Source of the DNA: Candidatus Rifleibacteriota bacterium
GTDB lineage: Bacteria > Muiribacteriota > Ozemobacteria > Ozemobacterales > Ozemobacteraceae
Direction: 5' to 3'
Length of the DNA: 23,466 nucleotides
Assembly (NCBI GenBank): GCA_051747585.1
Contig: JBNJGH010000049.1
Location: 1 to 23,466 of the forward strand
Shown here: piece after piece, positions 7,007 through 22,890 of the stretch
How positions within the stretch are numbered: the stretch's first letter is position 1
Layout of the letters: each line of letters starts with the position of its first letter
Notes under the pieces: model-generated
Seen by the model: the letters and a program-made list of their open reading frames with translations, nothing else
Told to the model about the DNA's origin: nothing
Database searches by the model: none
Position numbers and translations under genes: made by a program

Positions 7007-8461
7007 TTAAAACCCATGAATACTGCATTTAATCTCACTGGCATCGATAATTTCGTATTTTCCGCCATCGGGACACTGAGGAAGATTTTCCAGATATTCG
7101 TTGGCTAATAATTTTTCAAGCGTAACATTTTCTTCAGGATTATCGGAAACAAACATTTCAGTTGTAAGTTTAAGCATGCGACGATTGGCTGCACATTGAC
7201 CAGCCCGGGCAAATTTACGTGCGCGTTTATATCTGGGCATAATCATTTGCATAAGGTTGCCAGTTGCAGAGATAATTCCTGTAGCCAAAAAAGTTTCATT
7301 AATTTTATCGAGTTTGATTTGAAGCCGGCCTTTTGCTATTTCGCATTTTATCGCTTCCAGTGTATCGATTATGGAAACTTTTTCCTCATCAGCAGTCTCA
7401 GACAGCTTATTTAAAACAATATATTTCAATGTCAAAATCTGCTGACGGGCAATAGCCTTCCATTGTTGCAAAGCGGCCTCATCGTTGAAACCTGTTTTCA
7501 AAATGATCGAATTATTTTTGATTAGGAAGTGAAAAGCTTTAAAAGCTTCGATTCTTGGATCAACCATTTTCTCATGATTTAGTTTTATATCTGTTGGGTT
7601 TCTAATAGAACCATGCACAGAACAAACAGATAAATTTTTGTCCGCATCATCAAGAGCATAGACACCACCGGCGGGACAATGGGGCAAGCCTGCAAGAGAA
7701 CCTTTTTCTTTAAGCAGATTCAAATCAAGTTTATTCATGGACTTGCCGTTTTTAAGCAAGTACATATTCAAAGCATCATTAATTTTAATAAGATTCCTTA
7801 CACAAATAGCTTGCTGAGAAACAACATTTCTAGCTGCAAGCAACTCTTTAACTTTATTGAAATCAAGCTCGAACTCCAGCAAACTATCGCTTTTTTCGGG
7901 CAAACAACCTTTTAAAGAAGCTTTGCTCTTATCTGAATAAAAACGAAGCCCGTCGGGCAAAATTTGAAATATAAGATTGAAATTTTGCAAAGGAATTCTT
8001 ATTTCTACTATTTCATTGTTTTTTTTAAACGCTTTTAACTCTGCGGGGCTTTCAAACAGATTAAATAAATATTGATAGAACTCAACAGGATGAACCTTGG
8101 CATCAACCTGCATAAAAGGCTCGTAGTCAGAATTAATGACAAAATACAAGCCCCCGGAAGGTATAAAAAAACCTTTTGCAGTTAAATTTTTAACTTTTTT
8201 CAAAATCAGACTTAAATTAAAATCTGAAAGATTGAATAACTTCTTGAACAGGTTATTGATCTGTTTTCTCTTTAATTGATTCTCTGCTTTTAGTAAATCT
8301 TCTGCCTGTTCGGTGCATAGCTTATAAATAGACGACAAATCAATAAATGAGCGGGCAAGAATACTGTTTTCAATTCTATCAATTGGTGGTTTGGCCAAAA
8401 GGTTGAGTGATCCTGCTACAAACAGCAACAGAACAACAATCTTTGCGACGGCTTTGATCAT
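7007..8461 (-). CDS. Exported hypothetical protein with two pilin-head-like C..N/CPxGGxY/CSxHG modules
   Basis: N-terminal signal-like hydrophobic segment. Internal module AICVRNL...LPHCPAGGVY...CSVHG and C-terminal module GQCAANRR...LPQCPDGGKY...CSIHG. RBS GGGAG upstream. Confidence 0.7.
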   Translation of the reverse strand: MIKAVAKIVVLLLFVAGSLNLLAKPPIDRIENSILARSFIDLSSIYKLCTEQAEDLLKAENQLKRKQINNLFKKLFNLSDFNLSLILKKVKNLTAKGFFIPSGGLYFVINSDYEPFMQVDAKVHPVEFYQYLFNLFESPAELKAFKKNNEIVEIRIPLQNFNLIFQILPDGLRFYSDKSKASLKGCLPEKSDSLLEFELDFNKVKELLAARNVVSQQAICVRNLIKINDALNMYLLKNGKSMNKLDLNLLKEKGSLAGLPHCPAGGVYALDDADKNLSVCSVHGSIRNPTDIKLNHEKMVDPRIEAFKAFHFLIKNNSIILKTGFNDEAALQQWKAIARQQILTLKYIVLNKLSETADEEKVSIIDTLEAIKCEIAKGRLQIKLDKINETFLATGIISATGNLMQMIMPRYKRARKFARAGQCAANRRMLKLTTEMFVSDNPEENVTLEKLLANEYLENLPQCPDGGKYEIIDASEIKCSIHGF

Positions 8462-8585: not shown

Positions 8586-9776
8586 TTAATAACCGGCAGC
8601 TTTACGTAAACGCAGATAGTTTTCTTTGGCCGCCTGGTATTTTTTGAAAACTTCCATGATTTCATTCATTGGAGCCTGCTTTTGAATCTTGTATTGATAC
8701 AATTGTTTATAATACAAATAGGTTTCGTATGCTCTTTTTAGCTCGGCAGAAGTAGGTTTCTTCGAACTGCTCTGTTGGCTATCCGGGGTAGGCTGTCGGT
8801 TGACAACCGAGCCAGAGTTTGAAGACGAATTGCTGCTCGAAGAAGAACCTGAAGGATTTGACTCTGTATAAGAAGAATTTGCCGAATTATTTGAACTGCT
8901 GTTTACTCTTTCGGGGAGTCTGGCAATTTGTTTTTCAGCAGCTTCTATACGGTCTTCGGTTGGCGGATGGGTAGAAAAATATTTGGTTACCTTGCTGAGT
9001 TTATTGTCTTTATTAATCTTTTCAAAAAAGTCTAACAGACCATTTGGATCATAGCCTGCAGCATAACTATACTTTACCGCACATTCATCGGCTTCGAATT
9101 CGTCGCTGCGTGAAAACTTAAGATTTGCAAAATAAGAGGCAATCGCCGCATAGGACGCATATTTTCTAGTTTTTTTATTGAGCCCGAGCCCGGCAACCAG
9201 TAAAGTCATTAATCCGGCTTTTTCTGCCTGTCTTACACTATGCTTACAATCAACATGTCCCATTTCGTGTGCTACAACTCCGGCAAGCTCATCTTCTGAT
9301 TCGACCATATCAAGCAAACCACGGGTAATATAGACATAACCGCCGGGGGCGGCAAATGCATTTACTTCATCTGTATCCAATACGGCAAAATGCCAGGTAA
9401 GATCTTTTCTTTCGACATGCTTTATTAAACGTCTGGCTACAGTGCCAAGACGGCTGAGGGCTCTTTTATTGCGATAAAACCCAGGTTTTTTCTTTAAAGA
9501 CTCGTGAGTCTTTTTGCCCATCGAAAGCTCCCATTTATCTTCGAGACCACCGATAAAGGCCGAAGTTTGCGGAGCTTTCTCTCTGGATTGCTCAATGACT
9601 TTGTAGTTATCTTCGTCTGCACCGCCAAATGTGCGGTTAAGCGTAGCTGAAACTCTATCTAAGGCACCACTGACTTCGCCGAGGAAATCACCGATCGAAG
9701 CCTGGGCCGGAACTATAATTGAAACCTGAAACAGCAGAAGAAGAACCAGAACAAATAAATTTCGTCTGTTTCTCAC
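8586..9776 (-). CDS. M48 family zinc metalloprotease (BepA/YfgC-like) with signal peptide, Ser/Asn-rich linker and short helical C-terminal domain
   Basis: VNAFAAPGGYVYITRGLL, ELAGVVAHEMGH (HExxH), FSRSDEFEAD, AGYDP and STHP...RI. GTG start with GAGGT RBS. Confidence 0.92.
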   Translation of the reverse strand: MRNRRNLFVLVLLLLFQVSIIVPAQASIGDFLGEVSGALDRVSATLNRTFGGADEDNYKVIEQSREKAPQTSAFIGGLEDKWELSMGKKTHESLKKKPGFYRNKRALSRLGTVARRLIKHVERKDLTWHFAVLDTDEVNAFAAPGGYVYITRGLLDMVESEDELAGVVAHEMGHVDCKHSVRQAEKAGLMTLLVAGLGLNKKTRKYASYAAIASYFANLKFSRSDEFEADECAVKYSYAAGYDPNGLLDFFEKINKDNKLSKVTKYFSTHPPTEDRIEAAEKQIARLPERVNSSSNNSANSSYTESNPSGSSSSSNSSSNSGSVVNRQPTPDSQQSSSKKPTSAELKRAYETYLYYKQLYQYKIQKQAPMNEIMEVFKKYQAAKENYLRLRKAAGY

Positions 9777-9809
9777 ATTGTACCTCTTTTTTTATTATGA
9801 ATTATTTTA

Positions 9810-9838
9810 ATTTTATGTATTTATCTTGAAAGCGTCAA
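9810..9838 (-). promoter_or_regulatory. Sigma70-type promoter for the M48 peptidase gene
   Basis: Minus strand TTGACG-17 nt-TAAAAT, about 35 nt upstream of the GTG start. Confidence 0.7.
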
Positions 9839-9844
9839 CTCTTG

Positions 9845-9879
9845 TTGGCATTTTGCTTGATTTTGTGGCAAAATTCACT
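9845..9879 (+). promoter_or_regulatory. Putative promoter of the fadL-like gene with overlapping CRP/FNR-family-like box
   Basis: TTGGCA (9845-9850), 18 nt, then CAAAAT (9869-9874) preceded by TGn. It overlaps TGTGG-N6-TCACT (9864-9879), which matches 8 of 10 positions of TGTGA-N6-TCACA. Confidence 0.4.
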
Positions 9880-9910
9880 AATTAGAAAAATCAAATAGGA
9901 TGCTTGAAAA

Positions 9911-11197
9911 ATGAAAAAATATTTATTTACTGTTTTGATTTCTGCAGCTTTTGTAATTTTGTCTTTTGATTGTGCTTTTGCAAGTGGTTTTCAAATTTAT
10001 CAATCCGGTGGAGCCGATGCCATGGCTCTGGGCGCGGCAACGGTCGGGCGCGACGATCTTGTCTCGAGTGCCTGGTATAACCCTGCTGCAGTAATGGATT
10101 TTAAAAAGCCTCATTATAGTGCAGGAGTTTCGTTGGTAAAAGTAAACTGGGATTACGAACCAGGTAACGGAATAGACAAACTACAAACAAAAAAAGGAAT
10201 CCAATTTGTTCCAAGCTCACATCTTATTTATCCGGTAAATGAAAAATTTACAGCAGCTTTTTCTTTTTATGTCCCTTTCGGACTGGCAGTTGAATGGCAC
10301 GATGAAGACATAAAAAGACTTGCCGACTCGGGTTTGTTTAACAACCCGGCTTCTCCACCGGGAACTATTCTCAGCAAAGGTCTTCCAGCCCAGACAAAAT
10401 TGCAGGCTCCTTATTTTAATTCAACCATTGCAACCAGATTAAATGACAAATTAAGTGTTGCCGGGGGATTAAGTGTTATAAAAGCAAATTTTAAAATGCG
10501 TATTTTATCTCGTGGAACCGCTTTGCCATCAACCCCGTTATGGGATACTTTTATGAAGTATCAAGCGGATGGCTGGGGCCTGGGCTATGTTCTGGCAGCT
10601 CATTACAAGCAAAGCGACAGTCTTAAGTTCGGTTTGCGCTATCTTTCGCACGCAGACGTTGATCTGAAGGGCACGGTCGAGGATCATCCCAAGGTTGCAA
10701 TTGCAAGAGTTAAAGGAACTTTGAAGCTCCCTTCGACCCTTACCATAGGTTTTGTGAAGAATTTTTCAGATCGCTGGCAGGTTTCATGCGATATTATGCG
10801 TAATGACTGGAGTCGCTATGACGAGTTAAGAATTGAACCACGAGATCAGGGTGCTACTCAGGGCGGTCTTCTTGCGCCCAAAAATTGGGAGGATTCTTAC
10901 TCTTATCGTTTTGGTGCTGAATACAAATATTCAGAGAAATGGTCACTAAGAGGTGGTTACGTATTGGACAAGTCTCCTTTACCTACCGAAACCAGAGGTT
11001 TGGAGCTTGCCGCAAGTGATGGTCATATTTTTTCAATTGGGGCATCACGAAAAGTCAGAGATTATTCTTTCGACATAGGTTACAGCTATATGATTCTGGA
11101 AAATGCCGATGCAGGGTCTGTTTCTCTTAACAGTGTGGGCGAATTTACCAATGCTTACAACCATTTTCTTATGTTCAGCTATAATCGAGCATTTTAA
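9911..11197 (+). CDS. fadL: OmpP1/FadL/TodX family outer-membrane transporter
   Basis: Signal peptide ending AFA, mature N-terminus SGFQIYQ...AMALGAA, WYNPAA hatch motif, YVPFGL and W.DSYSYRFGAEY...LRGGYVLDKSP. C-terminal beta-signal SYNRAF. Confidence 0.9.
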   Translation: MKKYLFTVLISAAFVILSFDCAFASGFQIYQSGGADAMALGAATVGRDDLVSSAWYNPAAVMDFKKPHYSAGVSLVKVNWDYEPGNGIDKLQTKKGIQFVPSSHLIYPVNEKFTAAFSFYVPFGLAVEWHDEDIKRLADSGLFNNPASPPGTILSKGLPAQTKLQAPYFNSTIATRLNDKLSVAGGLSVIKANFKMRILSRGTALPSTPLWDTFMKYQADGWGLGYVLAAHYKQSDSLKFGLRYLSHADVDLKGTVEDHPKVAIARVKGTLKLPSTLTIGFVKNFSDRWQVSCDIMRNDWSRYDELRIEPRDQGATQGGLLAPKNWEDSYSYRFGAEYKYSEKWSLRGGYVLDKSPLPTETRGLELAASDGHIFSIGASRKVRDYSFDIGYSYMILENADAGSVSLNSVGEFTNAYNHFLMFSYNRAF

Positions 11198-11264
11198 TCT
11201 AATAGAGATTGAGGTACAATTTAAACTTCAGGTAATTAAACAGGGGTTTTCAGGAGGTTATTAC

Positions 11265-12719
11265 ATGCGCAAATATTACTGGTTTCTGGCTTTAGCAGCA
11301 TTTTTCTTTTCATACGATTCATGTCTGGCACTGGACATGAGTTCAACCGAAATTCTACAAACTAAAGGTCGGGTAGAAGTAAAAAAAGGACCGACGGAAA
11401 TATTTAAAAAACTTCACCGCAATTTAAGACTTGCCGGCTCTTTAAAGCGATTGAACAGCGGCGACAAAGTAAGAACCAGGCAAAAAAGCAGCGCCGAAAT
11501 GGCACTTAAAGAAACCTGTATTCTAGCAGTTAAAGAGCAAAGCCTTTTTGAAGTTCCGCAAACTGTTGGAAAAGAAGCTATGGCAGAGCTTAAAGCACAG
11601 CAAGGATCACTTTTATTTAAAGTGGTTTCGGGAAATGATTTCAAAGTAAAAACTGCCGACGTCATTGCCGGAGTTAAAGGCACCCTTTTTGAAATGGATA
11701 TAGTTGACAGTTTTAACACCATACTCGAAACCCCTTCTATAGAGCTGGGAACAATTGCAGCAGGTGGCACAATGGTCAACGTTTATCGCGGAGAAGTTGA
11801 GTTGACGCACGCACAAACCGGGAAGCAAAAAAAACTTAACGCAGGTGAAGGAATTACAGTATTTTCCGGTTCTTTATTGAAGCTGAATGCAGCATTAAAA
11901 AATGGTTTTGGTACATTGCGAAAATTTGACCCCGAAAACCTCTTGAGCCAGAATTTTGGCAATGGAGCATTGGAATTATTGAACCTGGCACCGAATCTTA
12001 CCTCGATGACTGGTTTTGCAGGCACAGGTTCTTTTAAATCGGCACTTGGTGCCCCTGGCGTTAGATTCAACAACCTTTTCACAGGCCTGAGTAAAACAGT
12101 AAAAGACAGCATAAGAATAGATGAACTCGAAAAAGGAATAGATATTATAAATGATTTTAAAGACGAAAAGTTCAAGGCGGATTTTTCTAAATACAGGCCA
12201 ATAAAGTCTTCTAAGAACTTGAATAACCGTAAATTTCAAGAAATCTATCTTGGTAAAAAAACTTTTGCCGCCTGCAAGGCAGATTTTGGAACACAAAGAT
12301 TAAAAGTAGAACCCGGTATTGAAGGTTTAAGCCTTATAGAAGGAAACGGAACCTTTAGGGTTATAAGATTCAAAAATGCCGGTAAAGACCTTGAATTTCT
12401 GGTCAGCTATTATGAAACCGGCAACCAGAGAATAACAGCAGTTAACGTTCTCAAAGGCGAACTCTACGGTCGTCTGCCGGGCGAAATAGAATATTTTAAA
12501 ATTCCGGCTGGCGAGGTAGCTTTCGTTTGCAACGCTGAAAAACCCCAGGGAACATGGACAAAAGCTCAGCAAAACAGCTTTGTTCCACAACAAAAAAGAT
12601 ATGTCTTCAGGGTTGCCGAAGAAATTTCCCAAAAACGGGAAGCTGTAGAAAAAAGAAATACCAAAAAGAAAATTAAAGGTGTAAAGAAAATACTTAAATA
12701 TAAAGGTTTCGGCTTCTAA
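11265..12719 (+). CDS. Exported FecR-domain protein
   Basis: Start corrected to ATG 11265 (AGGAGG RBS, then signal peptide MRKYYWFLALAAFFFSYDSCLA). FecR pattern GDKVRT...SSAEM, QGSLLFKV, FKVKTADVIAGVKGTLF, VNVYRGEVEL, LNAGE. Confidence 0.8.
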   Translation: MRKYYWFLALAAFFFSYDSCLALDMSSTEILQTKGRVEVKKGPTEIFKKLHRNLRLAGSLKRLNSGDKVRTRQKSSAEMALKETCILAVKEQSLFEVPQTVGKEAMAELKAQQGSLLFKVVSGNDFKVKTADVIAGVKGTLFEMDIVDSFNTILETPSIELGTIAAGGTMVNVYRGEVELTHAQTGKQKKLNAGEGITVFSGSLLKLNAALKNGFGTLRKFDPENLLSQNFGNGALELLNLAPNLTSMTGFAGTGSFKSALGAPGVRFNNLFTGLSKTVKDSIRIDELEKGIDIINDFKDEKFKADFSKYRPIKSSKNLNNRKFQEIYLGKKTFAACKADFGTQRLKVEPGIEGLSLIEGNGTFRVIRFKNAGKDLEFLVSYYETGNQRITAVNVLKGELYGRLPGEIEYFKIPAGEVAFVCNAEKPQGTWTKAQQNSFVPQQKRYVFRVAEEISQKREAVEKRNTKKKIKGVKKILKYKGFGF

Positions 12720-12721
12720 GA

Positions 12722-15700
12722 ATGACCGGTAAGTTTACCCGGAAATTTAACCGCAATATATCCGATAATGGTAAAAGAGCCTTTCTGGTTCTTTTACCAA
12801 TTTTGTTTATCTCTTTTCTTCCTTTTGTAAATAATCTGTTCTCCTGGCTGGATGCAAAAGTTGTCGACCTCTTTTTTGCACTCAAACCATACACAGATCA
12901 AACCGCTCCCAATCACACCGCTTTAACAATTGTCAAAGATCAGACTTTCTTTAAACGATTTGGCCGAGACCCTGATCGCAGAGATTTTGCCAGATTGGTA
13001 AATCATCTCAAAGAAGCTGATGTTAAGCTGGTTGCTTTTGATTTCATTTTCAGCTCGGCAACTGATCCCGAAAAAGACAAATCGCTGGTTAATGCTTTAG
13101 ATGAATTTCCTTATACTCTGGTAGCGCAGCACTTTGTTTCAAGGGGTCGGCAAACCTTTGAAACAGACAATCTTTATGACAACCAGGCATTCAGACCACC
13201 CTGGCCTGTTAAGCTATGGCCGCCACTTGCAAAAGCTGTTTCGCTTAAAGGCCTGATTAATCTGGTTGCAGATTTTGATTCAACGGTAAGATATGCGCCA
13301 ATAGCATTTCACCCGACAGAGATGAGTGAATTTTTACCATCTTTTGCCTATGCTGCCTATATTGCAAGACTATTTTCTGATTCAACTGAAAATCTGGACT
13401 TAAACAGCATACAACCAGACTTTTCTAACTGTGAAAATACCCTGCTACAAACTATCAATCAAGGCCCGTTTAAGTTTAATTCTTCCGGACACAAGGGAAT
13501 AGATATTATGACCCGAAGGCTGGAAATAAAACTTCTTGCCGATTATCTGGCGCGTTTTAATCCTCAAAAAAAAAGCCGGTTGGAAGCTGCCGCACAGAAT
13601 TTAAACCTGAGCCTTTTAAACAAAAGCACCTGGCTTGAGCTTCCCTCAGATGCCCTACCTCTGACCGGCAATTATGATATGCCCTGTATCAGGCTTAATT
13701 TTTATAAGTCACAGCCGCCACAAAAAAGTGACACCATTAAAAATTTGTCTATGAGTTTGCTCTTAAAAACAAAAGAAGACCAAAAATGGGCAAACCGTTT
13801 ATACAAGTATGATTTAAACATTAAAGAAAGCCAGGCAAAAATACCCCTTGCCTTCAACTGGCAAGCGCCCGGCGAAAGCAAAATAACAGGCAATGTTGAA
13901 TTCTTTAACAACCGGAAGACTGAGAACCTTGTTGTAAGACTGGAAATGTCTGATGGGGCATATTGGGATATTGTTAAAACCGACGAAACAGGAAAATTCA
14001 TTTTCGACAAGGTGCCCGCAGGCAATTTTATAATCACTGTAATTAACAAAACTTCAAATGGCTACAGTAAAAGTAGCCTGAGCGGGAAAAGTGAACCCGG
14101 CCGGATCATCAATCTGCCGAAGCTTTACGGCTTCAGCCCGGATTACAAGGTAAATTTTAAAGACAAGCTGCCACCAGAAACAGATGAAATCTTTATTTTT
14201 GGAGAACCGCTTCATCTGATAAAAACTGACAAGAAGGGGTTATGCAATGCCTCTCTGCCCGATGAATTTGAACTTTTCTGCCTTGATGAAAATATTGAAA
14301 ATTTCAAAATCAATGATGGCATCTTCACCGACTCAAATGGAGAAGCATTAACAGAAAAAGTTTTTGCCGCAATAAAAACAGATCCCCTCTGGAATCACGA
14401 ATTCTTATTCAAATTCAAGCCCGGTCAAAAAATCAAAGTTCCATCAACTATTAATAGTCAGCTAATTCTTTTTTCCGACAAAACCGGCAACTCAAAGCAA
14501 AAAACAACAGAATTAACTGTTTATCCAGAAACAGATAATCTCGTTACAGAAGTTCCTGAATTAACTCATAAAGAAAAACAGAAAATTAGAGCCGGCTTTA
14601 AGCACAAAAATCCCCTGAATGAATTATTTGCAATCTCTGAAACCGAAAACAGAATCAAGCTTACTACTGACAGCGAAATACTTTTAGAACCGGGAAAGTA
14701 TAATTTTTTTGCCACGAAGGGTAAGTTAAGGGGCAAATTTAACCGCCTCAAAGCGCAGATTGGCAACCGAACCCCTTTTATTGGAACTTCTCTGGCTGAA
14801 GACCAGGATTTTATAACCACTCCGATAAATTTTCTTGATTCTTCATTTAACCGATTACCCGGAGTTAACCTGCACGCCAACCTGTTTTCTGCTTTAATGA
14901 GAAATGATTTTCTTAAACCGCTTTTTATTCATAGCGATTATATGCCTTACAGCTGGCCTTTATGGCAGGTGCTGGCGATTTTGCCATTCCTGCTGATCTG
15001 CAATTTCATATTTTTCAAGCTCGGCGCTTTATGGGGCGGCTTTGCAATTGTTCTAACAGCTTGCGCCTGGTTTTCTACAGCTTTTTTCTGTTTTTTATAC
15101 AGTATGCTGTTGCCGGTTTTTATACCTGTTGTTTCGATAGCCTCATTTGGCATCAGTCGTGGTTACATTGCCTGGGCAATAAGCAAACGCAAAGAACAGG
15201 AAACCCGCTCAACCTTTGGACGATTTATTTCTTCTGCAGTTGTTGAAGATATCTTAAAAACGCCTGAATCATTAAAACCGGGGGGAGAGAAAAAGGAATT
15301 AACAATAATGTTTTCTGACCTGGCGGGGTTTACTACAATTTCTGAAAAGCTCCCACCCGAACAGCTGACAGAACTCATGAACGAATATCTGGGTGAAATG
15401 ACGAAATTGCTGTTTGATTATAGAGGCACTCTGGATAAATATATTGGCGATGCGATAATGGCTTTCTGGAATCACCCGAAAGAACAGGCTGACCACCCTG
15501 AGCTGGCTGCCAGATGCGCAATCGCCATGCAGAAAAAGCTGATAGAATTGCGGCAAAAATGGAAAAAACATGGGCTTCCTGAAGTTCAGGTTCGAGTAGG
15601 TTTAAATACTGCCAATTCAATGGTTGGCTTTATTGGCAGCGATATTCAAATGAATTTCACCTGTCTGGGAGACGGAGTAAACCTGGCTTCAAGGCTGGAA

Positions 15701-16078
15701 GGTGCAAATAAACCATACAATACCCTTATGATGATTTCGGAATCGGTATACAAAAGATTAAACCCGGAAGTGTTCAGCACAAGATTTCTTGATTACCTTG
15801 CAGTTAAAGGTAAAAAGCAGCCAATAAAAGTATATGAATTACGCGGTTATTTGAGTGAAGAAAAAGAAGAATGGTTAAAAGCAGAAAAGTTCTATAATAA
15901 AGGAATAGAAAGCTACTTAAATAGAGATTGGAACAAAGCTATAGAATTATTTGAAAAGGTGCTGAAATTTGTTCCTCAAGATTCGCCAACCAGGATTTTT
16001 ATTGAAAGAAGTCTGGCTTTCAAAAAAAATCCCCCACCCGAAGACTGGGATGGAAGATTTATTTTAACAAGCAAATAG
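12722..16078 (+). CDS. CHASE2-sensor membrane adenylate cyclase (class III) with large periplasmic insertion and C-terminal TPR-like region
   Basis: N-terminal TM, then CHASE2 motifs (RRDFARLV..L...VAFDFIF; GLIN...D.DSTVR; FIGT...DFITTP...PGVNLHAN) and three TMs. Cyclase motifs FSDLAGFTTISE, DKYIGDAIMAFW, TCLGDGVNLASRLEG and VKGK. Ends with a TPR-like segment and PPPEDWDG. Confidence 0.92.
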   Translation: MTGKFTRKFNRNISDNGKRAFLVLLPILFISFLPFVNNLFSWLDAKVVDLFFALKPYTDQTAPNHTALTIVKDQTFFKRFGRDPDRRDFARLVNHLKEADVKLVAFDFIFSSATDPEKDKSLVNALDEFPYTLVAQHFVSRGRQTFETDNLYDNQAFRPPWPVKLWPPLAKAVSLKGLINLVADFDSTVRYAPIAFHPTEMSEFLPSFAYAAYIARLFSDSTENLDLNSIQPDFSNCENTLLQTINQGPFKFNSSGHKGIDIMTRRLEIKLLADYLARFNPQKKSRLEAAAQNLNLSLLNKSTWLELPSDALPLTGNYDMPCIRLNFYKSQPPQKSDTIKNLSMSLLLKTKEDQKWANRLYKYDLNIKESQAKIPLAFNWQAPGESKITGNVEFFNNRKTENLVVRLEMSDGAYWDIVKTDETGKFIFDKVPAGNFIITVINKTSNGYSKSSLSGKSEPGRIINLPKLYGFSPDYKVNFKDKLPPETDEIFIFGEPLHLIKTDKKGLCNASLPDEFELFCLDENIENFKINDGIFTDSNGEALTEKVFAAIKTDPLWNHEFLFKFKPGQKIKVPSTINSQLILFSDKTGNSKQKTTELTVYPETDNLVTEVPELTHKEKQKIRAGFKHKNPLNELFAISETENRIKLTTDSEILLEPGKYNFFATKGKLRGKFNRLKAQIGNRTPFIGTSLAEDQDFITTPINFLDSSFNRLPGVNLHANLFSALMRNDFLKPLFIHSDYMPYSWPLWQVLAILPFLLICNFIFFKLGALWGGFAIVLTACAWFSTAFFCFLYSMLLPVFIPVVSIASFGISRGYIAWAISKRKEQETRSTFGRFISSAVVEDILKTPESLKPGGEKKELTIMFSDLAGFTTISEKLPPEQLTELMNEYLGEMTKLLFDYRGTLDKYIGDAIMAFWNHPKEQADHPELAARCAIAMQKKLIELRQKWKKHGLPEVQVRVGLNTANSMVGFIGSDIQMNFTCLGDGVNLASRLEGANKPYNTLMMISESVYKRLNPEVFSTRFLDYLAVKGKKQPIKVYELRGYLSEEKEEWLKAEKFYNKGIESYLNRDWNKAIELFEKVLKFVPQDSPTRIFIERSLAFKKNPPPEDWDGRFILTSK

Positions 16079-16088
16079 CTACTGCTAT

Positions 16089-16526
16089 TTATAGTTGTAA
16101 TTCCATCGGCACATGGTCAATACCGGCCTCATCAAACACCGGCCCCACAGTAATAAAACCAAGCTTTTTATACATGGCTTCAACCAGACATTGAGCGTGA
16201 ATGTCAATTCTGGTACACCCAAGCTCGTTAGCTTTTTCGATAAGTTTTTTAACAACCCTTCTGCCCATACCCTGGTGGCGGTGTTCGGGCAAAACGGCAA
16301 CTCTTCCAAGTATTGCTACAGACGGATTTTCAGCATCTTTGTACACTCTTCCGGTTGCAACGGGTTCTTTACCTTTCAGGGCAACTACATGCCAGGCCAG
16401 GTCGTCGAATTCATCTTTTTCAAGCTCCTCTGGAACCTTCTGTTCATTGACAAACACTCTGTAACGAACCCGCATGGCGAGTTCGAATTCCCGAGTTTTA
16501 CCTTTAAAGAAATGAAACTTGATCAT
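16089..16526 (-). CDS. GNAT family N-acetyltransferase (ElaA/YjcF-like)
   Basis: RYRVFVNEQKVP..LEKDEFD, GRVAVLPEHRHQGMGR, HAQ...YKKLGF...G.VFDEAGIDHVPM. The start overlaps the RND stop (ATGA). Confidence 0.92.
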   Translation of the reverse strand: MIKFHFFKGKTREFELAMRVRYRVFVNEQKVPEELEKDEFDDLAWHVVALKGKEPVATGRVYKDAENPSVAILGRVAVLPEHRHQGMGRRVVKKLIEKANELGCTRIDIHAQCLVEAMYKKLGFITVGPVFDEAGIDHVPMELQL

Positions 16527-19500
16527 ACAGCATCATTTTGGGATTTTTTCTCTTCAGTGTTGCCAAAACCGGAAAAAAGGTTTTTAAAGAAACTTATAAT
16601 TTTTTCGATTGAGATGAATACGGTTGGCACAAAAGTCAAAGTAAGAACAGTTGAAACCAGCAATCCCCCGGTAACAGATATGGCAAGTGGCTGATAAAAG
16701 TCGGCCCCGGCACCAAGCCCGAGCGTTAAAGGAGACATGCCCAGCAGAGTTGTGCACATAGTCATCAAGATCGGACGAAACCTGAGTGTGCCTGCGCTTA
16801 TTGCAGCATCATAATCATTTTCTTTCCATTTGTTTCTTCTTAACAGAATATATTCTACCAGAATAATACCATTGTTAACCGCAATTCCGGCCAGCATAAT
16901 AATACCTATCATCGCCGTAACCGAAAAAGCAAAGCCCGAGATCCGAAGCCCGGCAACAACACCCATATATGAAAGGGGTATGGTAAACATTATGATAAAA
17001 GGATAAAGAATAGATTCGAATTGCGAAGCCATAATCATATAAACCAGCAATATCGAAGCGACCAGTGCTACTGCAAGATAACCAAAAGCTTCTTTCATAT
17101 CTTCGTTTTCACCGCCATAGTTAATCGAATAACCCGGCGGTAATTTAAGATCTGCCAACTTTTCATCAATATCAGTCATGATGGCGCCTATTGGCCTTTG
17201 ATCGGGATCGGCCTGAACAATCAATCTTCGAGCCATATTTTTACGCTCTATGGTACTGTAGCCATTTGCGGGCTCAAAATGGGCAACCTGCGAAAGTTTA
17301 ACAAATCTGTTTTTATCAAGAGATATTTCCAGCTCCTGGAAACGTGCAATTTTGTCTTTTGCCTCATCGGTAGCTTCTACTCTTATGTCAAATTCATCAT
17401 TACGTTCGCGATATTTGCCTGCCAGAGACCCGTAAACATAACTTCTTGCCATTTGTGCAATCTTACTTAAACTCAAGTCAAGATCACGAATTTTTTCGCG
17501 GTCAAACACAAGCCTGAATTCAGGACGACCTTTTTTAATTCCATCCTCTAGATCTTTAAGACCGGGTATATCTTTGACTCTATTATACACCTCGGCACAA
17601 ATTGCTTCGATCTGGTCAAAATCATCACCCATAACCTCGATCTGAATAGACTTGCCCCGTGAGGGTTTGCCCATAGAAGGTTTTTTATAATTGATGGTTC
17701 TTATTCCGGGAATAATAGAGACTTTTTCTCTGACTTCACGAATTATATCCTGGGTAGTTTTTTCTCTACTCTCGGTAGGCAAGAGTATAACAGAAAGGTT
17801 ACCTTCGCCTACTGCTGAGTTAGTAATTATTTTGTCGACCTGAGAGTACTGTTGTAGAACATACTCTATTTTTTCGGTTATTTCGTCTGTTTTTTCTACG
17901 CTTGTTCCTTCGGGAGTTTCAAAAGAAATATTAAATTCGCCCCGGTCCATGTCGGGAAAAAATGCCATTGGAGGCTGCTGAAACAAGCTGAAAACAAACA
18001 AGACAAGAACCAGAACTATATAAGAAAGTCTAAAATACCAGTGCCTGATTAATATTCCGAGAACTTTAATATAAGCGCCTCTTATAATGTAAATAAGAAT
18101 AAAATCAAATACAGGTTCCAGAATTCTTTCAACAATGAAGTTAAAAACAAAAAACAAAACCGCTATAAGTAATGGAAACAATAAAACAAAGGCTATTAAA
18201 CCTACAGAAAAGCCCAAACTAATAGCTTCGGTTGAATAAACTGAAAGCAGGCTTGAAGCGCCGGTTTTTTGCAAAAGCTCGGTTATTGCCTGATTTTTCA
18301 AGCCAAAAAATACGATTAGAGCCGGGGTAAGAAATGCACAAAGAACGCCGGCAATTGTTTTGAAAATATTTTTCTGACACCAACGAAACAAAGATTTGTA
18401 CATTCTTACGATTATCTCTTCGAGATAAGCACTTTTAAGCTTGAGAAATCTGGAGCAAAGCATTGGAATCAGGGTTACGGCAACAAGCAAAGATGCCAGC
18501 AAAGAAAATATTATAGCCAGTGACATGTTAAAAAATATCTCGCCGACTATTTGCGGCACAAAGCCTATTGGTAGAAAAACCGCAACCGTGGTTCCGGTTG
18601 AGGCAATAATTGGCATAAGCACTTCTTCAGCCGCGCTGGCAGTAAGATCTTTGCGGTCTTTATCGGGATGATCGGCAATGAATCGATATATATTCTCCAT
18701 TACCACGATAGCATTATCGATCATCATTCCTATGCCAAGGGCAAGGCCCCCAAGGGTCATAAGGTTTAGAGTAATATCTTCTTTTAATGCCAGAAGACCA
18801 AAAGTTGTAAGAACAGCAATTGGAATTCCTATGCCAATAATAATGGTCGATCTATAATTGCGCAGAAAAATAAAAAGAACAAAAATAGCAAACAAACCAC
18901 CGATGGTAGCATTGTCTTTAACCATCTGAATTGTGTCTCGAATAAAAAGAGTTTCATCTTTGGCTATAATAATGCTCAATTTTCCCTTATACTTTTCTTC
19001 GAGCTCAGGAACCAGTTTCTGAGCCTGATCTGAAATTTCTACAGGGTTGGCACCTGCTTCTTTTTTTATTTCAAGAGTAACCGAGGGTTTTCCGTTCAAT
19101 CTTGAAACGGAATCTATTTCTTTAAAAGAATCTTCTATAACCGCGACTTCAGAAACATAAACAGGTCTTCCCCCAACTTCCTTTATAATTATATCGCCAA
19201 GTTGCTGTGGGTCTGTAACTTCCCCTTCAGAGCGTAAAAGATATTTAAAATTACCTTCTTCAATGTTTCCCAGAGGTGTATCCTGGTTTCCACGGTTAAC
19301 TGCGTTAATAATATCATCTATAGTCAGATTCAAGGCCAGAAGCTTAGCAGGAGCGACTTTAACATGAATTTCTCGCTCTCGACCGCCTTTGATTTCAACA
19401 TTTGCTACTCCGCTTATGCGTTGAAAAGCCGGTTTGATTTCGCGATCTGCTATGTTTCTCAGATCGACAAGATCAAAATCACCGCCAAGAGCGACATTCA

Positions 19501-19915
19501 GTACAGGAAAAGCGTTAATATCAACTTTAGAAACAGTGACCTGTTCTATGTCTCTTGGCAACTCTCTTTTGGCAATATCGACCTTTGCTCTGAGATCAAC
19601 ACTTGCAAGATCGATGTCTGTACCATAATCAAAGCTCACGACAATCTGAGAAAAGCCTTCAACTGAATATGATTCAAGCTTATCTATGTTCTCGACCGTG
19701 TTTACTTCGTCTTCGATTTTTTGAGTAACGATTGTTTCTATCTGAGCAGGGTCAACACCGGGATAAGGCGCCTGAATAAAAGCCACGGGAATATCGATAT
19801 CGGGAAAAAGAGCGACATTCAGCACAAATATCGCGCCGATGCCTATAAGTGCCATGCCAAGCATAAGCATAGTAACGGTAACTGGTCTGTTAATTGAAGT
19901 TCTTGGTATACTCAT
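16523..19915 (-). CDS. RND efflux permease (AcrB/AcrD/AcrF family) with extra hydrophobic insertion
   Basis: SINRPVTV, FPDIDIP, YPGVDP, LNLMTLGGLALGIGMMIDNAIVVMENI, ASTGTTVAVFLP, MASQFES, GIAVNNGIILV and RFRPILMT. Confidence 0.96.
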   Translation of the reverse strand: MSIPRTSINRPVTVTMLMLGMALIGIGAIFVLNVALFPDIDIPVAFIQAPYPGVDPAQIETIVTQKIEDEVNTVENIDKLESYSVEGFSQIVVSFDYGTDIDLASVDLRAKVDIAKRELPRDIEQVTVSKVDINAFPVLNVALGGDFDLVDLRNIADREIKPAFQRISGVANVEIKGGREREIHVKVAPAKLLALNLTIDDIINAVNRGNQDTPLGNIEEGNFKYLLRSEGEVTDPQQLGDIIIKEVGGRPVYVSEVAVIEDSFKEIDSVSRLNGKPSVTLEIKKEAGANPVEISDQAQKLVPELEEKYKGKLSIIIAKDETLFIRDTIQMVKDNATIGGLFAIFVLFIFLRNYRSTIIIGIGIPIAVLTTFGLLALKEDITLNLMTLGGLALGIGMMIDNAIVVMENIYRFIADHPDKDRKDLTASAAEEVLMPIIASTGTTVAVFLPIGFVPQIVGEIFFNMSLAIIFSLLASLLVAVTLIPMLCSRFLKLKSAYLEEIIVRMYKSLFRWCQKNIFKTIAGVLCAFLTPALIVFFGLKNQAITELLQKTGASSLLSVYSTEAISLGFSVGLIAFVLLFPLLIAVLFFVFNFIVERILEPVFDFILIYIIRGAYIKVLGILIRHWYFRLSYIVLVLVLFVFSLFQQPPMAFFPDMDRGEFNISFETPEGTSVEKTDEITEKIEYVLQQYSQVDKIITNSAVGEGNLSVILLPTESREKTTQDIIREVREKVSIIPGIRTINYKKPSMGKPSRGKSIQIEVMGDDFDQIEAICAEVYNRVKDIPGLKDLEDGIKKGRPEFRLVFDREKIRDLDLSLSKIAQMARSYVYGSLAGKYRERNDEFDIRVEATDEAKDKIARFQELEISLDKNRFVKLSQVAHFEPANGYSTIERKNMARRLIVQADPDQRPIGAIMTDIDEKLADLKLPPGYSINYGGENEDMKEAFGYLAVALVASILLVYMIMASQFESILYPFIIMFTIPLSYMGVVAGLRISGFAFSVTAMIGIIMLAGIAVNNGIILVEYILLRRNKWKENDYDAAISAGTLRFRPILMTMCTTLLGMSPLTLGLGAGADFYQPLAISVTGGLLVSTVLTLTFVPTVFISIEKIISFFKNLFSGFGNTEEKKSQNDAV

Positions 19916-19919
19916 AGTT

Positions 19920-20954
19920 TTATTGAATTTTGCTGTTTCTTAGGGTTATTTCTGAGCCATCATCGAGATTATCCTGGCCCACGGTTACAATTTTCATACC
20001 TGCCTTAACTTGTTCTGCGTAGGTTTCTTCGCCCTGCTGCGCAATTATATCTATAGTTATTCGACGTGCTATACCGTCTTCAACCGCAAAAACGAAAATT
20101 TCGCCACGATTGTTTCTTATAGCCTGTGAAGGAAACATGGGAACATCTTTATAATCTTTAAGTATAATTGAGCCTTTTATAAACATTTTATCTTTATAAT
20201 AAACGTCAGGATTGTTAACCTTGATCTTTATCTCGAAAGCTCTGGAACTATCGGCCGAAAGATTGATATGAGCTACTTTTCCTTTAAAGTTGCCATTAAT
20301 CAAACATTCCTGACCAACATCTATTTTATTGATATCCTGCTCTGCAATTTTTGCTTCTACGTAAATAATATCGAGAAAAATAATTTTTCCCATGTTCTGG
20401 CCTCTTGCCATAGCCTGACCAAGATCAATCGAACGGTCTACAAAGAATCCTTTTATAGGCGCTCTTATCACACAACGGTTAAGATCAAGTTCAGCCTTGT
20501 CAAGCTCGGCTCTGGACTGTTTAACATTAACCTTTGCCTGGATATAGGAAGTCTCAACCATGTCAAAAGTTTTACGAGTAATTGCACCTTTCTTAAAAAG
20601 TGTTTCATTTCGCTCAAAATCTCTTTTTTCTTCTTCCAGCTTCTGTTCAGCAATTTCAAGAGAGGCTTGAGCCATTCTCAATGCAATTTTGAAACGCACA
20701 TCATCAATTTTGGCAAGAGGTTGCCCTTTTTCTACCCGATCACCATCTTCAACATATATTTCGGCTACAGGCCCAAATACATCGGCAGCCGCCCAGGCTT
20801 CTACATAAGGAATGGTTTCGCCGCTGAAACGAAGAATTTTGCTGATATTTCCTTTTTTAACATCTTCAGCAATTACATTAACCGCTGCAATAGCAGTCTG
20901 CAGCGAAAAGAAACATAAAAAAATCACAATTAAACTTAATCTCTGCTTTGACAT
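19920..20954 (-). CDS. RND efflux periplasmic adaptor (membrane fusion protein)
   Basis: Lipoyl-like G.VAEIYVEDGDRVEKGQPLAKID, coiled hairpin (ERNETLFKKGAIT) and IRAPIKG. Lies between the TolC and RND genes. Confidence 0.93.
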   Translation of the reverse strand: MSKQRLSLIVIFLCFFSLQTAIAAVNVIAEDVKKGNISKILRFSGETIPYVEAWAAADVFGPVAEIYVEDGDRVEKGQPLAKIDDVRFKIALRMAQASLEIAEQKLEEEKRDFERNETLFKKGAITRKTFDMVETSYIQAKVNVKQSRAELDKAELDLNRCVIRAPIKGFFVDRSIDLGQAMARGQNMGKIIFLDIIYVEAKIAEQDINKIDVGQECLINGNFKGKVAHINLSADSSRAFEIKIKVNNPDVYYKDKMFIKGSIILKDYKDVPMFPSQAIRNNRGEIFVFAVEDGIARRITIDIIAQQGEETYAEQVKAGMKIVTVGQDNLDDGSEITLRNSKIQ

Positions 20955-22315
20955 CAGTTATTTTCTCCATTTGCCAGTTTAAGTTGATTTAAAAGGAATT
21001 CAAATTTCAATGCAACGGGATTATCATCAACCTTGAACAGGCTCTGATAATCCTGAATCAATAACAATATTTCAACAAGTCTTATTCTTTCATCGAAAAA
21101 AGCTCTAATTGCCGTCTGGGCAGAATTGGTCAGAATTCTCTGCGCATCGACGAGCTCGACAATCGAAGAAGCTCCTTCCTGGTATCGAGTAAAAACGATT
21201 CTCATGTTTTCATAGCTTTGCTCGAGAGTTTTTACGGCAAAGTTAATTCTGGCCAGAGCTTCATTGTAGTCTGCCACAACCTTTTCGAGAGAAGCTTTTT
21301 TTATATTCTTCAAATTCTCAAGTTTTAAAGTCGCAATTTTCCTGGACTTTTTAGCCAGTCTAATTGAATTTTCTATTTCATTACCGTTATATATCGGGGT
21401 TGATAAAATAAAAGCAGCCTTTATATCTTTGGTACCTTCAATTGGTCCCACTTTTCGTCCATAATTATAAGAGCCGTCAAAAGTCAGAGTAGGCAGATGT
21501 GCGCTTCGAGCAACTTTTTCGGCTTTACGTAATATCTCTATATCGAGCTTGGCAAGCTTTATTTCCTTATCATTTTCTAAAAGTACAGGCCAAAGTTCAT
21601 CAGCAGTAAAACTTGAAGGGGCAAATTTCAAACCTTCAGGAAGATCTAGTTTAAGCTCTTCGGTAGTATCATAATCAAGAATTGCAGCAAGATCATAATG
21701 TAAATTACTAAAACCATTCTGGTTCTTAAGTAGATTAGTCTTAGTATTGAGACCCTCTACCTCTATTCTCAATATGTCATTTTTCAATACCAGCCCTACT
21801 TCCAGATTAAGATTGGCAATTTTCAACAACTCGTCAATTAAAACAAGGTCTGTCTTGTGAACTTTAATCAATTCCTGCTCGCGCACCAGCTGAAAATAAA
21901 CCTTTGCAAGGCTTTTGATAACAGCTGTTTTTTCATTGGCTTTAGCGGTCTTTCGCATCTGAGTTTTCAGCCTGGCAATGTCTCGCTGAACTGCAGGAAT
22001 CTGACCCAGGCCAGGATAAGTTTGAGTAAGTTTAAGTGAATAGGTCAAAACAGAATCTATGCTGGATGGATTGCTCTTCTGGTAGCTATCTTTAAAAGTT
22101 GTATGTGATTTATTTACATTAAATTTCAAATCGGGAATAAGTTTATTTAATGCATTTTTTTCATCAATAAAGCTCTGCTCAATCTCAAGCTCTGAGATTT
22201 TTAAACTCAGGTTTCTTTCAATAGCCAGCCGGGCTAAATGTTCAAAGCAACTGGCAGACGAACTTGAGGAAATGAGCATTAACATTCCTATAACAAAAAA
22301 AAGTTTTTTATTCAT
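20954..22315 (-). CDS. TolC family outer-membrane efflux channel
   Basis: Two TolC-like repeats (LAIERNLSL...LIPDL; ARSAHLPTL...TPIYNG) and RYQEGASSIVELVDAQ, plus operon context. Confidence 0.9.
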   Translation of the reverse strand: MNKKLFFVIGMLMLISSSSSASCFEHLARLAIERNLSLKISELEIEQSFIDEKNALNKLIPDLKFNVNKSHTTFKDSYQKSNPSSIDSVLTYSLKLTQTYPGLGQIPAVQRDIARLKTQMRKTAKANEKTAVIKSLAKVYFQLVREQELIKVHKTDLVLIDELLKIANLNLEVGLVLKNDILRIEVEGLNTKTNLLKNQNGFSNLHYDLAAILDYDTTEELKLDLPEGLKFAPSSFTADELWPVLLENDKEIKLAKLDIEILRKAEKVARSAHLPTLTFDGSYNYGRKVGPIEGTKDIKAAFILSTPIYNGNEIENSIRLAKKSRKIATLKLENLKNIKKASLEKVVADYNEALARINFAVKTLEQSYENMRIVFTRYQEGASSIVELVDAQRILTNSAQTAIRAFFDERIRLVEILLLIQDYQSLFKVDDNPVALKFEFLLNQLKLANGENN

Positions 22316-22890
22316 GTTGCTTTTACCCCGTAAATTAAATTATCTATAACCTTTTTCAATTCATGGTCTGTGTAAGATATGCCAAGCTTGAATTCTCTAA
22401 ATACAAAATAATGCGCAGTTCCTATAATTGTAGATAAAATTGATTCAGTATCAACTTCTTTAATTTCGCCTGAGCGCTTTGCCATTTCAAGTCTGGGTTT
22501 CATAAAGAAAAATATTTCAAGCAGCTGATTGCTCGATTCCTTTCTTTTGGCCGAACAAAGTCTCATATCTCTTTCAAAACGAATCAATCCTATTTTGTTG
22601 TTCTGGGTAAAAACTTTGATAAAAGTTCTTAATCCGGCAAGCAAATACTCTTCGACAGGCAGCGATTCACGACAGTACTTCTCAAAATTACTCTTGAGAC
22701 TCTTTAAAAAATTCGCATCCAGCTCTTGATAAAGGTTTTCTTTATTATGAAAATAACGATAAAAAGTACCCTTGCCGCAAACAGCCCGATTTACTATTTC
22801 GTCTATGGTTGTTCTTTCAAAGCCCTTTTCCATAAACACATCCAGAGCTGCCTGCATAAGAATTTCTTTTTTTCCGATTTTTCTTTTCAT
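22312..22890 (-). CDS. TetR/AcrR family transcriptional regulator
   Basis: N-terminal HTH AALDVFMEKGFERTTIDEIVNRAVCGKGTFYRYFHNKENL. First gene of the efflux operon, with a 4-nt overlap with tolC. Confidence 0.95.
   Translation of the reverse strand: MKRKIGKKEILMQAALDVFMEKGFERTTIDEIVNRAVCGKGTFYRYFHNKENLYQELDANFLKSLKSNFEKYCRESLPVEEYLLAGLRTFIKVFTQNNKIGLIRFERDMRLCSAKRKESSNQLLEIFFFMKPRLEMAKRSGEIKEVDTESILSTIIGTAHYFVFREFKLGISYTDHELKKVIDNLIYGVKAT

Follow-up and report, generated by a model that had tools for sequence, protein, structure and literature searches.

The window analysed here is a contig of 23,466 nucleotides (nt) from a Candidatus Rifleibacteriota bacterium of the family Ozemobacteraceae (JBNJGH010000049.1); we refer to the genome that carries it as G000 and to the relatives compared as G001 onward. 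Between positions 9911 and 16078 it holds three co-oriented genes encoding a FadL-family outer-membrane barrel (P0001), a likely exported protein with a FecR fold (P0002) and a class III adenylate cyclase with a CHASE2 domain (P0003). The conserved unit at this locus consists of two genes, fecR and the CHASE2 cyclase gene, and fadL is very probably a lineage-specific passenger outside it. The locus comprises the following features:

8586..9776, minus strand: M48 peptidase gene, divergent from the three genes; it marks the syntenic position among closely related genera but is not linked to the pair in more distant ones.
9777..11264, no strand: variable slot between the M48 gene and fecR, holding fadL here and other genes or nothing in relatives.
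9911..11197, plus strand: fadL (P0001), 428 amino acids (aa), FadL/OMPP1-family outer-membrane barrel (PF03349, 196.8 bits).
11265..12719, plus strand: fecR (P0002), 484 aa, FecR-fold partner (PF04773 FecR, 30.8 bits, residues 67–146).
12722..16078, plus strand: CHASE2 class III adenylate cyclase gene (P0003), 1118 aa (CHASE2, 84.4 bits; Guanylate_cyc, 85.3 bits).

The open reading frames (ORFs), their strand and a scan of the gaps agree with the arrangement described in an earlier reading made from the sequence alone (the sequence-only reading), in which three co-oriented genes are separated by 67 and 2 nt with no obvious terminator between them. The shorter gap, between fecR and the cyclase gene, runs from 12719 to 12722. 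The most likely start of P0002 is the ATG at 11265, which has an AGGAGG 6 nt upstream and from which the orthologs align, and this start yields the 67-nt gap after fadL; a longer ORF starting at 11103, returned by the ORF finder, is disfavoured by both the AGGAGG and the ortholog alignment at 11265. A sequence scan of the fadL–fecR gap revealed no terminator-like site, and a promoter scan found promoter-like sites at chance level (21 versus 17.8 ± 5.7). The same reading held that the window lacks an extracytoplasmic function (ECF) sigma factor and a TonB-dependent receptor, which agrees with the absence of any Pfam match to these families in the 16 window ORFs scanned. In addition, a 2453-nt contig of the public run X1 runs from the M48 gene across fadL into the first 134 nt of fecR, with 146 differences from the window (~94% identity), showing that the gene order is not an assembly artefact and is common to a related strain; this bridging contig came from one of four runs, and the remaining three yielded just short fragments of the region. 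At 12769–12799, within 80 nt of the start of the cyclase coding sequence, the plus strand has a 13-pair hairpin followed by a T-rich tail, which may be incidental.

Strong orthologs of P0002 (E 3e-52 or better) were found in 29 of the 36 other genomes from the same family. The 24 genomes from other families had no such ortholog and gave domain-level matches only. A genome-collection scan returned 41 loci, 14 of them new, two of these being halves from one assembly. All loci fall in one family, and the relatives with P0002 orthologs are labelled Riflebacteria/Ozemobacteraceae. The resulting synteny set comprised 43 other P0002 loci, 40 with downstream DNA and 38 informative upstream after five with less than 1.2 kb of upstream sequence had been dropped. 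A cyclase ortholog lies downstream of fecR in all 40 loci with downstream DNA, the first cyclase match starting 383–1416 nt past the fecR stop in G006, G011 and G022. Five of the seven family genomes that lack a P0002 ortholog also lack the cyclase ortholog; one of the two exceptions concerns a gene lying 193 nt away from the start of its contig, the other a genome that is 67% complete. In phylogenetic trees, of which that of the cyclase was a quick one, the FecR protein and the cyclase of G000 both group with their own genus.

Phosphodiesterase and TPR-protein genes are absent beside the pair, its flanks being fadL and a GNAT gene, and none recurs next to it in 29 loci. The M48 peptidase was considered as a module member and rejected: although it neighbours the pair in closely related genera, the two are on different contigs in G007, G008, G010, G011, G017, G020, G021 and G022. 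Genes for a cNMP-binding/HATPase-like protein (cNMP, cyclic nucleotide monophosphate) and for a second class III cyclase of ~430 aa adjoin the pair in G001 and G005 and lie nearby in G004 (L075:9251-11840, L076:5240-7820 and L072:12921-15530). The cNMP-binding gene of G000 is located on C176 (G000:C176:3233-4534), where the second cyclase was not found.

Conservation of fadL beside the fecR–cyclase pair, as the sequence-only reading would have it, had been set beforehand as a test, and it did not hold up: fadL lies upstream of the pair in none of the 38 informative loci, which were searched with one FadL query in part of the scans and with three in the rest. Close fadL orthologs (49–64%) occur in eight other genomes, always apart from the pair: in G014, which has two contigs, the distance is 1.17 Mb, and elsewhere the two are on separate contigs. 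Ten further genomes with a FecR ortholog carry a distant FadL on another contig, so that 18 genomes in all have FadL on a contig other than that of the pair or 1.17 Mb from it. In the remaining 11 of the 29 genomes with a FecR ortholog, 8 of which are at least 90% complete, no FadL-family match exceeded the Pfam cut-off. The fadL ortholog of G001, G002, G004 and G014 is flanked by a divergent gene on one side and a conserved gene of 355 aa on the other, and these two genes are on separate contigs in G000; in G004 the ortholog is split into two ORFs (L106:3440-4827). In G009, G031 and G035 nothing occupies the slot between M48 and fecR; it contains the cNMP-binding protein and second cyclase genes in G001 and G005 and a hybrid kinase gene in G014, and holds fadL only in G000. 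Across the family, the region upstream of fecR shows no recurring ORF cluster.

In its tree, the FadL of G000 groups with genus g5 (80/99), unlike the FecR protein and the cyclase, and genus monophyly was rejected for FadL with a p value in the approximately unbiased test (p-AU) of 8.9e-6, a result to be read with the caveats that the group was named after identities had been seen and that hidden paralogy is possible. Codon usage did not mark fadL as foreign (GC content at third codon positions, 22nd percentile; codon adaptation index, 65th percentile), and the M48–fadL spacer shows weak similarity to the M48–fecR spacers of relatives (best E 0.012). P0001 itself has the features of a FadL/OMPP1/TodX channel: PF03349 covers its full mature length, the NPA motif is kept and the terminal residue is Phe. 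It aligns over its full length to Escherichia coli FadL from residue 2 onward (23% identity), with no N-terminal extension relative to that protein and no STN match, while the control FecA does match STN. The fadL gene likely encodes an uptake channel unrelated to the pair, having moved in upstream of it. As fadL stands beside the pair only in this lineage, a relay from FadL to cyclic AMP (cAMP) is unlikely. A literature search for FadL together with CHASE2, within the papers available, found no description of a FadL-type input.

The predicted model of P0002 (predicted local distance difference test, pLDDT, 79), together with its sequence, delimits five segments:

~1–22: signal peptide, likely of the Sec type, judged by eye from the N-termini and likely in all 27 aligned orthologs.
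~23–202: FecR/CJM β-domain, containing the invariant G139-T140.
203–300: helical linker, from the predicted model.
~305–440: second all-β domain, from the predicted model (317–433 all-β).
C-terminus: basic helix.

PF04773 FecR was matched in all 27 aligned orthologs. Searches of the PDB with the sequence of P0002 and with its alignment gave no meaningful match, whereas its model matched the anti-sigma factor PupR (6ovm_R; VIA Z 15.7, root-mean-square deviation 2.1, 139 aligned residues) over chain range 111–265, which is essentially the CJM subdomain, and 6ovk in Foldseek (E 3e-5). The FecR domain is the better conserved of the two β-domains, with 68 of 180 columns conserved at 90% or above versus 12 of 145 in the second. 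G139-T140 is invariant in the 27 aligned orthologs and is placed as the G-T motif of PupR-type proteins. Only ~22 residues precede the conserved domain, and no 19-residue segment exceeds a hydropathy of 1.6, as a transmembrane helix would. The cytoplasmic anti-sigma domain DUF4880 was matched in none of the 27 orthologs but was matched in the control E. coli FecR. FecR_C/STN (PF16344) was likewise matched in 0 of 27, with limited sensitivity given that the E. coli FecR control scored only 25.1 bits; moreover, neither the mostly helical 203–300 nor the all-β 317–433 of the model forms a β-α-β repeat as in STN. With no STN match in P0001 and no FecR_C match in P0002, neither protein shows its half of the docking pair known from cell-surface signalling, although the two might make contact in some other way.

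All 27 orthologs end in a basic tail with 8–14 Lys plus Arg in the last 30 residues and terminal aromatic or hydrophobic residues (window 12630–12719), which is possibly a membrane anchor or sorting signal. The second β-domain gave no fold match above Z 5.1 in a whole-model search, and a tandem FecR duplication was discarded after alignment of the two β-domains by hhalign returned a probability of 0.9%. In an Atlas structure search with residues 320–526 of the homologue P0073, FecR-bearing clusters accounted for 7 of 10 rows, all sub-threshold (TM 0.38–0.51), and we treat this as a lead only.

P0003 has the following organization in its predicted model (pLDDT 81):

~17–43: first transmembrane segment, from hydropathy and the model.
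~700 residues: ectodomain, a split CHASE2 with a ~390-aa insert containing β-sandwich domains.
745–830: three further transmembrane helices.
857–1040: cyclase domain.
C-terminal tail: TPR-like, weak, fused.

In Pfam, the CHASE2 domain is matched in two parts, with profile positions 7–158 at residues 32–255 and 152–251 at ~644–756. CHASE2 was matched in all 19 cyclase orthologs, with transmembrane segments on either side. The insert is poorly conserved (21–24% identity to the query), matches CarboxypepD_reg in 17 of the 19 orthologs and resembles pilin-type β-sandwiches. The split CHASE2 and the extra β-domain of the partner are lineage-specific features. Class III adenylate cyclases use two metal-binding Asp residues, a Lys with a Thr or Asp for adenine recognition, and an Asn and an Arg for the transition state. 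The best PDB sequence match of P0003 is CyaB (3r5g, E 9e-40), and D866, K906, D910, T980, N987, R991 and K1029, aligned with CyaB, are invariant in all 19 orthologs. K906 and T980 are taken here to indicate adenine specificity, and P0003 is accordingly predicted from its sequence to be an intact adenylate cyclase that makes cAMP. Since G000 encodes ~30 class III cyclase-like ORFs and 10 cNMP-binding matches, P0003 would be one of many cAMP inputs in this genome. A paralogous CHASE2 cyclase (G000:C22:31381-34266), 45% identical over the C-terminal 440 aa and present family-wide, has no FecR neighbour in G000 and offers a natural control.

The coupling of FecR to CHASE2 genes is general. We counted FecR matches within 3.5 kb of CHASE2 genes in a set of 11 genomes, selected for low contig number plus G000, whose kinship makes the counts non-independent. 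FecR neighbours were found for 24 of 79 CHASE2 genes versus ~1.5 expected, and for 19 of 74 when orthologs of this pair were left out; three genomes had no FecR neighbour at all. Two CHASE2 genes of G000 (C58:11974-14489 and C26:13159-15826) each have an adjoining short FecR-domain gene, and both loci have, as judged by eye, an ECF-sigma-like and anti-sigma-like gene pair nearby. A further CHASE2 cyclase of G000 (C127:2961-5738, L043) has downstream of it a gene for a protein of 321 aa that is likely secreted. Residues 1–216 of this protein match no Pfam family, and it is a candidate partner, either FecR-like or of an unnamed type.

Contact between the FecR protein and the CHASE2 ectodomain, which the sequence-only reading had marked for complex modelling, was predicted using residues 40–745 of P0003 and 22–285 of P0002. 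The complex scored 0.32 versus 0.00 for the best control, with individual runs at 0.36, 0.01 and 0.32, at least 16% of contacts shared and a partner pLDDT of at least 71. The mark applied had been reached by 116 of 157 solved pairs and by 2 of 215 mismatched pairs in calibration, of which 18 solved pairs and both mismatches lay at or below 0.60. The modelling thus lent weak support to a contact, with one of the three runs speaking against it.

From the observed gene order, the conservation of the pair, the absence of fadL beside it elsewhere, the domain content and the invariant catalytic positions, we propose, at even confidence, a co-receptor role for the FecR-fold protein: once exported, it would bind the periplasmic CHASE2 ectodomain of the inner-membrane enzyme and set the rate of cAMP synthesis according to an envelope cue. 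Sec would export P0002, and the basic tail would hold the protein close to the inner membrane. Docking on the ectodomain would fall to the N-terminal FecR/CJM domain, which is the best conserved part of P0002. A contact changed by the envelope cue, possibly with self-cleavage at G139-T140, would pass through the transmembrane helices to the cyclase dimer, and the cAMP produced would be read by cNMP-binding proteins encoded elsewhere. In this lineage fadL would probably be co-transcribed, merely from landing between the pair and its upstream region. The broader notion that the FecR/CJM fold is a dedicated protein ligand of CHASE2 receptors, forming in this family a two-gene unit without an outer-membrane receptor in which the state of a tail-tethered, Gly-Thr self-cleaving partner switches cAMP synthesis, is less likely than not. 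If it is true, the strict one-to-one pairing would make the question of CHASE2 binding directly testable. The ~40 receptor–partner pairs of the family are suited to co-evolution analysis.

Several observations weigh against a co-receptor role. The binding evidence is one weak prediction, with one of three runs at 0.01, and conserved gene neighbours need not touch physically. Fifty-five of the 79 CHASE2 genes have no nearby FecR match. The alignment of G139-T140 with the self-cleavage site of E. coli FecR (G181-T182) is weak (hhalign probability 0.5%). In Sinorhizobium meliloti, the FecR-domain gene smc02177, which lies beside cyaD1 (SMc02176), is a Clr target that was reported as dispensable for signal perception (PMC5498481).

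This last precedent also speaks for an unlikely alternative, in which P0002 would be an envelope protein resembling an effector or adhesin, either co-transcribed with the cyclase gene or induced by cAMP, and would exert no control over the cyclase. Binding of host proteins in vitro by Leptospira FecR-domain proteins (PMC13719327) and the weak score of the P0002–ectodomain complex would fit it as well, but the tight spacing of the two genes, their joint presence or absence across the family and the fact that FecR has several times independently become paired with CHASE2 genes that have other outputs (PMC5192318) favour a CHASE2-specific partner. P0002 might also relay a signal received by an outer-membrane receptor whose gene lies elsewhere, in the manner of NsrA with CyaK and CyaD1/D2 in S. 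meliloti. Such a module would be trans-envelope but with a barrel other than FadL; we regard it as unlikely, though deserving of appreciable weight. NsrA is required for signalling via three CHASE2 cyclases (PMC7529298, PMC13001267), G000 encodes two TonB-receptor barrels and, on C1, a 321-aa weak PF03349 match, and the second β-domain of P0002 could bind another partner. Against such a receptor, the upstream ORFs form no cluster that recurs in the family, and FecR_C/STN, which makes the receptor contact in PupR (PMC7186176), was matched in none of the 27 P0002 orthologs.

The sequence-only reading suggested that a hydrophobic ligand, passing through or bound by FadL, could signal via the FecR protein to the cyclase. 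Co-orientation, the 67-nt gap without a terminator-like site and the same order in the related strain of X1 are consistent with it, but the synteny counts given above (0 of 38 loci, 11 of 29 genomes without a FadL match and 18 with FadL distant from the pair), the unrelated or absent occupants of the slot in relatives, the lack of an N-terminal extension and of an STN match in P0001 and the discordant FadL tree leave it highly improbable and, at most, a recent recruitment in this lineage. Synteny thus largely refutes the FadL relay. Of the trans-envelope module originally envisaged, the FecR–cyclase link and a cAMP output without a sigma factor survive in the conserved pair, whereas the FadL-type input is not supported, given the synteny and the lack of detected docking domains. 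A fatty-acid-channel input to cAMP is not upheld, the locus is not worth pursuing as a FadL signalling system, and the pair that remains is of modest value.

Elsewhere in the window, two ORFs matched no Pfam family over the cut-off (7007–8461, 484 aa, and 1044–1802, 252 aa), the former being kept between glycosyltransferase and M48 genes in seven loci. Genes for a TetR regulator, an outer-membrane factor, a membrane-fusion protein and an RND pump at 16523–22890 form an ordinary efflux operon, which stays downstream of the fecR–cyclase pair within the genus.

Comparison with known systems separates the pair from some and aligns it with others. With the anti-sigma factors FecR, PupR and FoxR (PMC7186176, PMC8144685), P0002 shares the CJM fold and a G-T motif in the corresponding position. 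In the solved PupR–PupB complex, the N-terminal STN domain of PupB rests against two parts of PupR, its linker and its STN subdomain, and both PupR subdomains are needed (PMC7186176); P0002, in contrast, has no anti-sigma domain, transmembrane helix or detected STN, and no ECF sigma factor or TonB transducer gene adjoins it. The pair is not a cell-surface signalling anti-sigma system. As regards the barrel, fadL differs from its E. coli counterpart in that its neighbours vary between genomes.

What CHASE2 domains sense is stated as unknown (PMC5192318); their sensing is poorly defined in general, and in S. meliloti the signal needs NsrA. The S. meliloti cyaD1–smc02177 locus, within the NsrA–CyaK/CyaD1/CyaD2–Clr system, resembles the pair in combining a CHASE2 cyclase with an adjoining exported FecR-domain gene and a cAMP output without a sigma factor. 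It differs in that the window locus has no evident NsrA-like barrel, judged by size (NsrA ~1200 aa, P0001 428 aa), and no Crp-family gene. In magnetotactic bacteria, the gene for the signal-peptide protein MtxA likewise stands just before a CHASE2 adenylate cyclase gene (PMC4439547), although MtxA, compared by description only, has Ig-like and TPR domains. The operon of Burkholderiales and Pseudomonas (PMC5192318) places the gene of a signal-peptide LysM–FecR protein directly upstream of that of a CHASE2 histidine kinase; there the output is a kinase and LysM is present, whereas here the output is a cyclase and no LysM match was found. Similar in content are the Campylobacterota clusters, in which CHASE2 adenylate cyclase genes lie beside a FecR-domain protein gene and a joint pathway was proposed from clustering alone (PMC9239204). 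Those clusters add a phosphodiesterase and a TPR protein, whereas the present unit has two genes, a CHASE2 split by an insert and an extra partner β-domain. By these gene-level features, the pair belongs with the published FecR plus CHASE2 receptor gene pairs, and it adds to the FecR–CHASE2 cyclase clusters already described.

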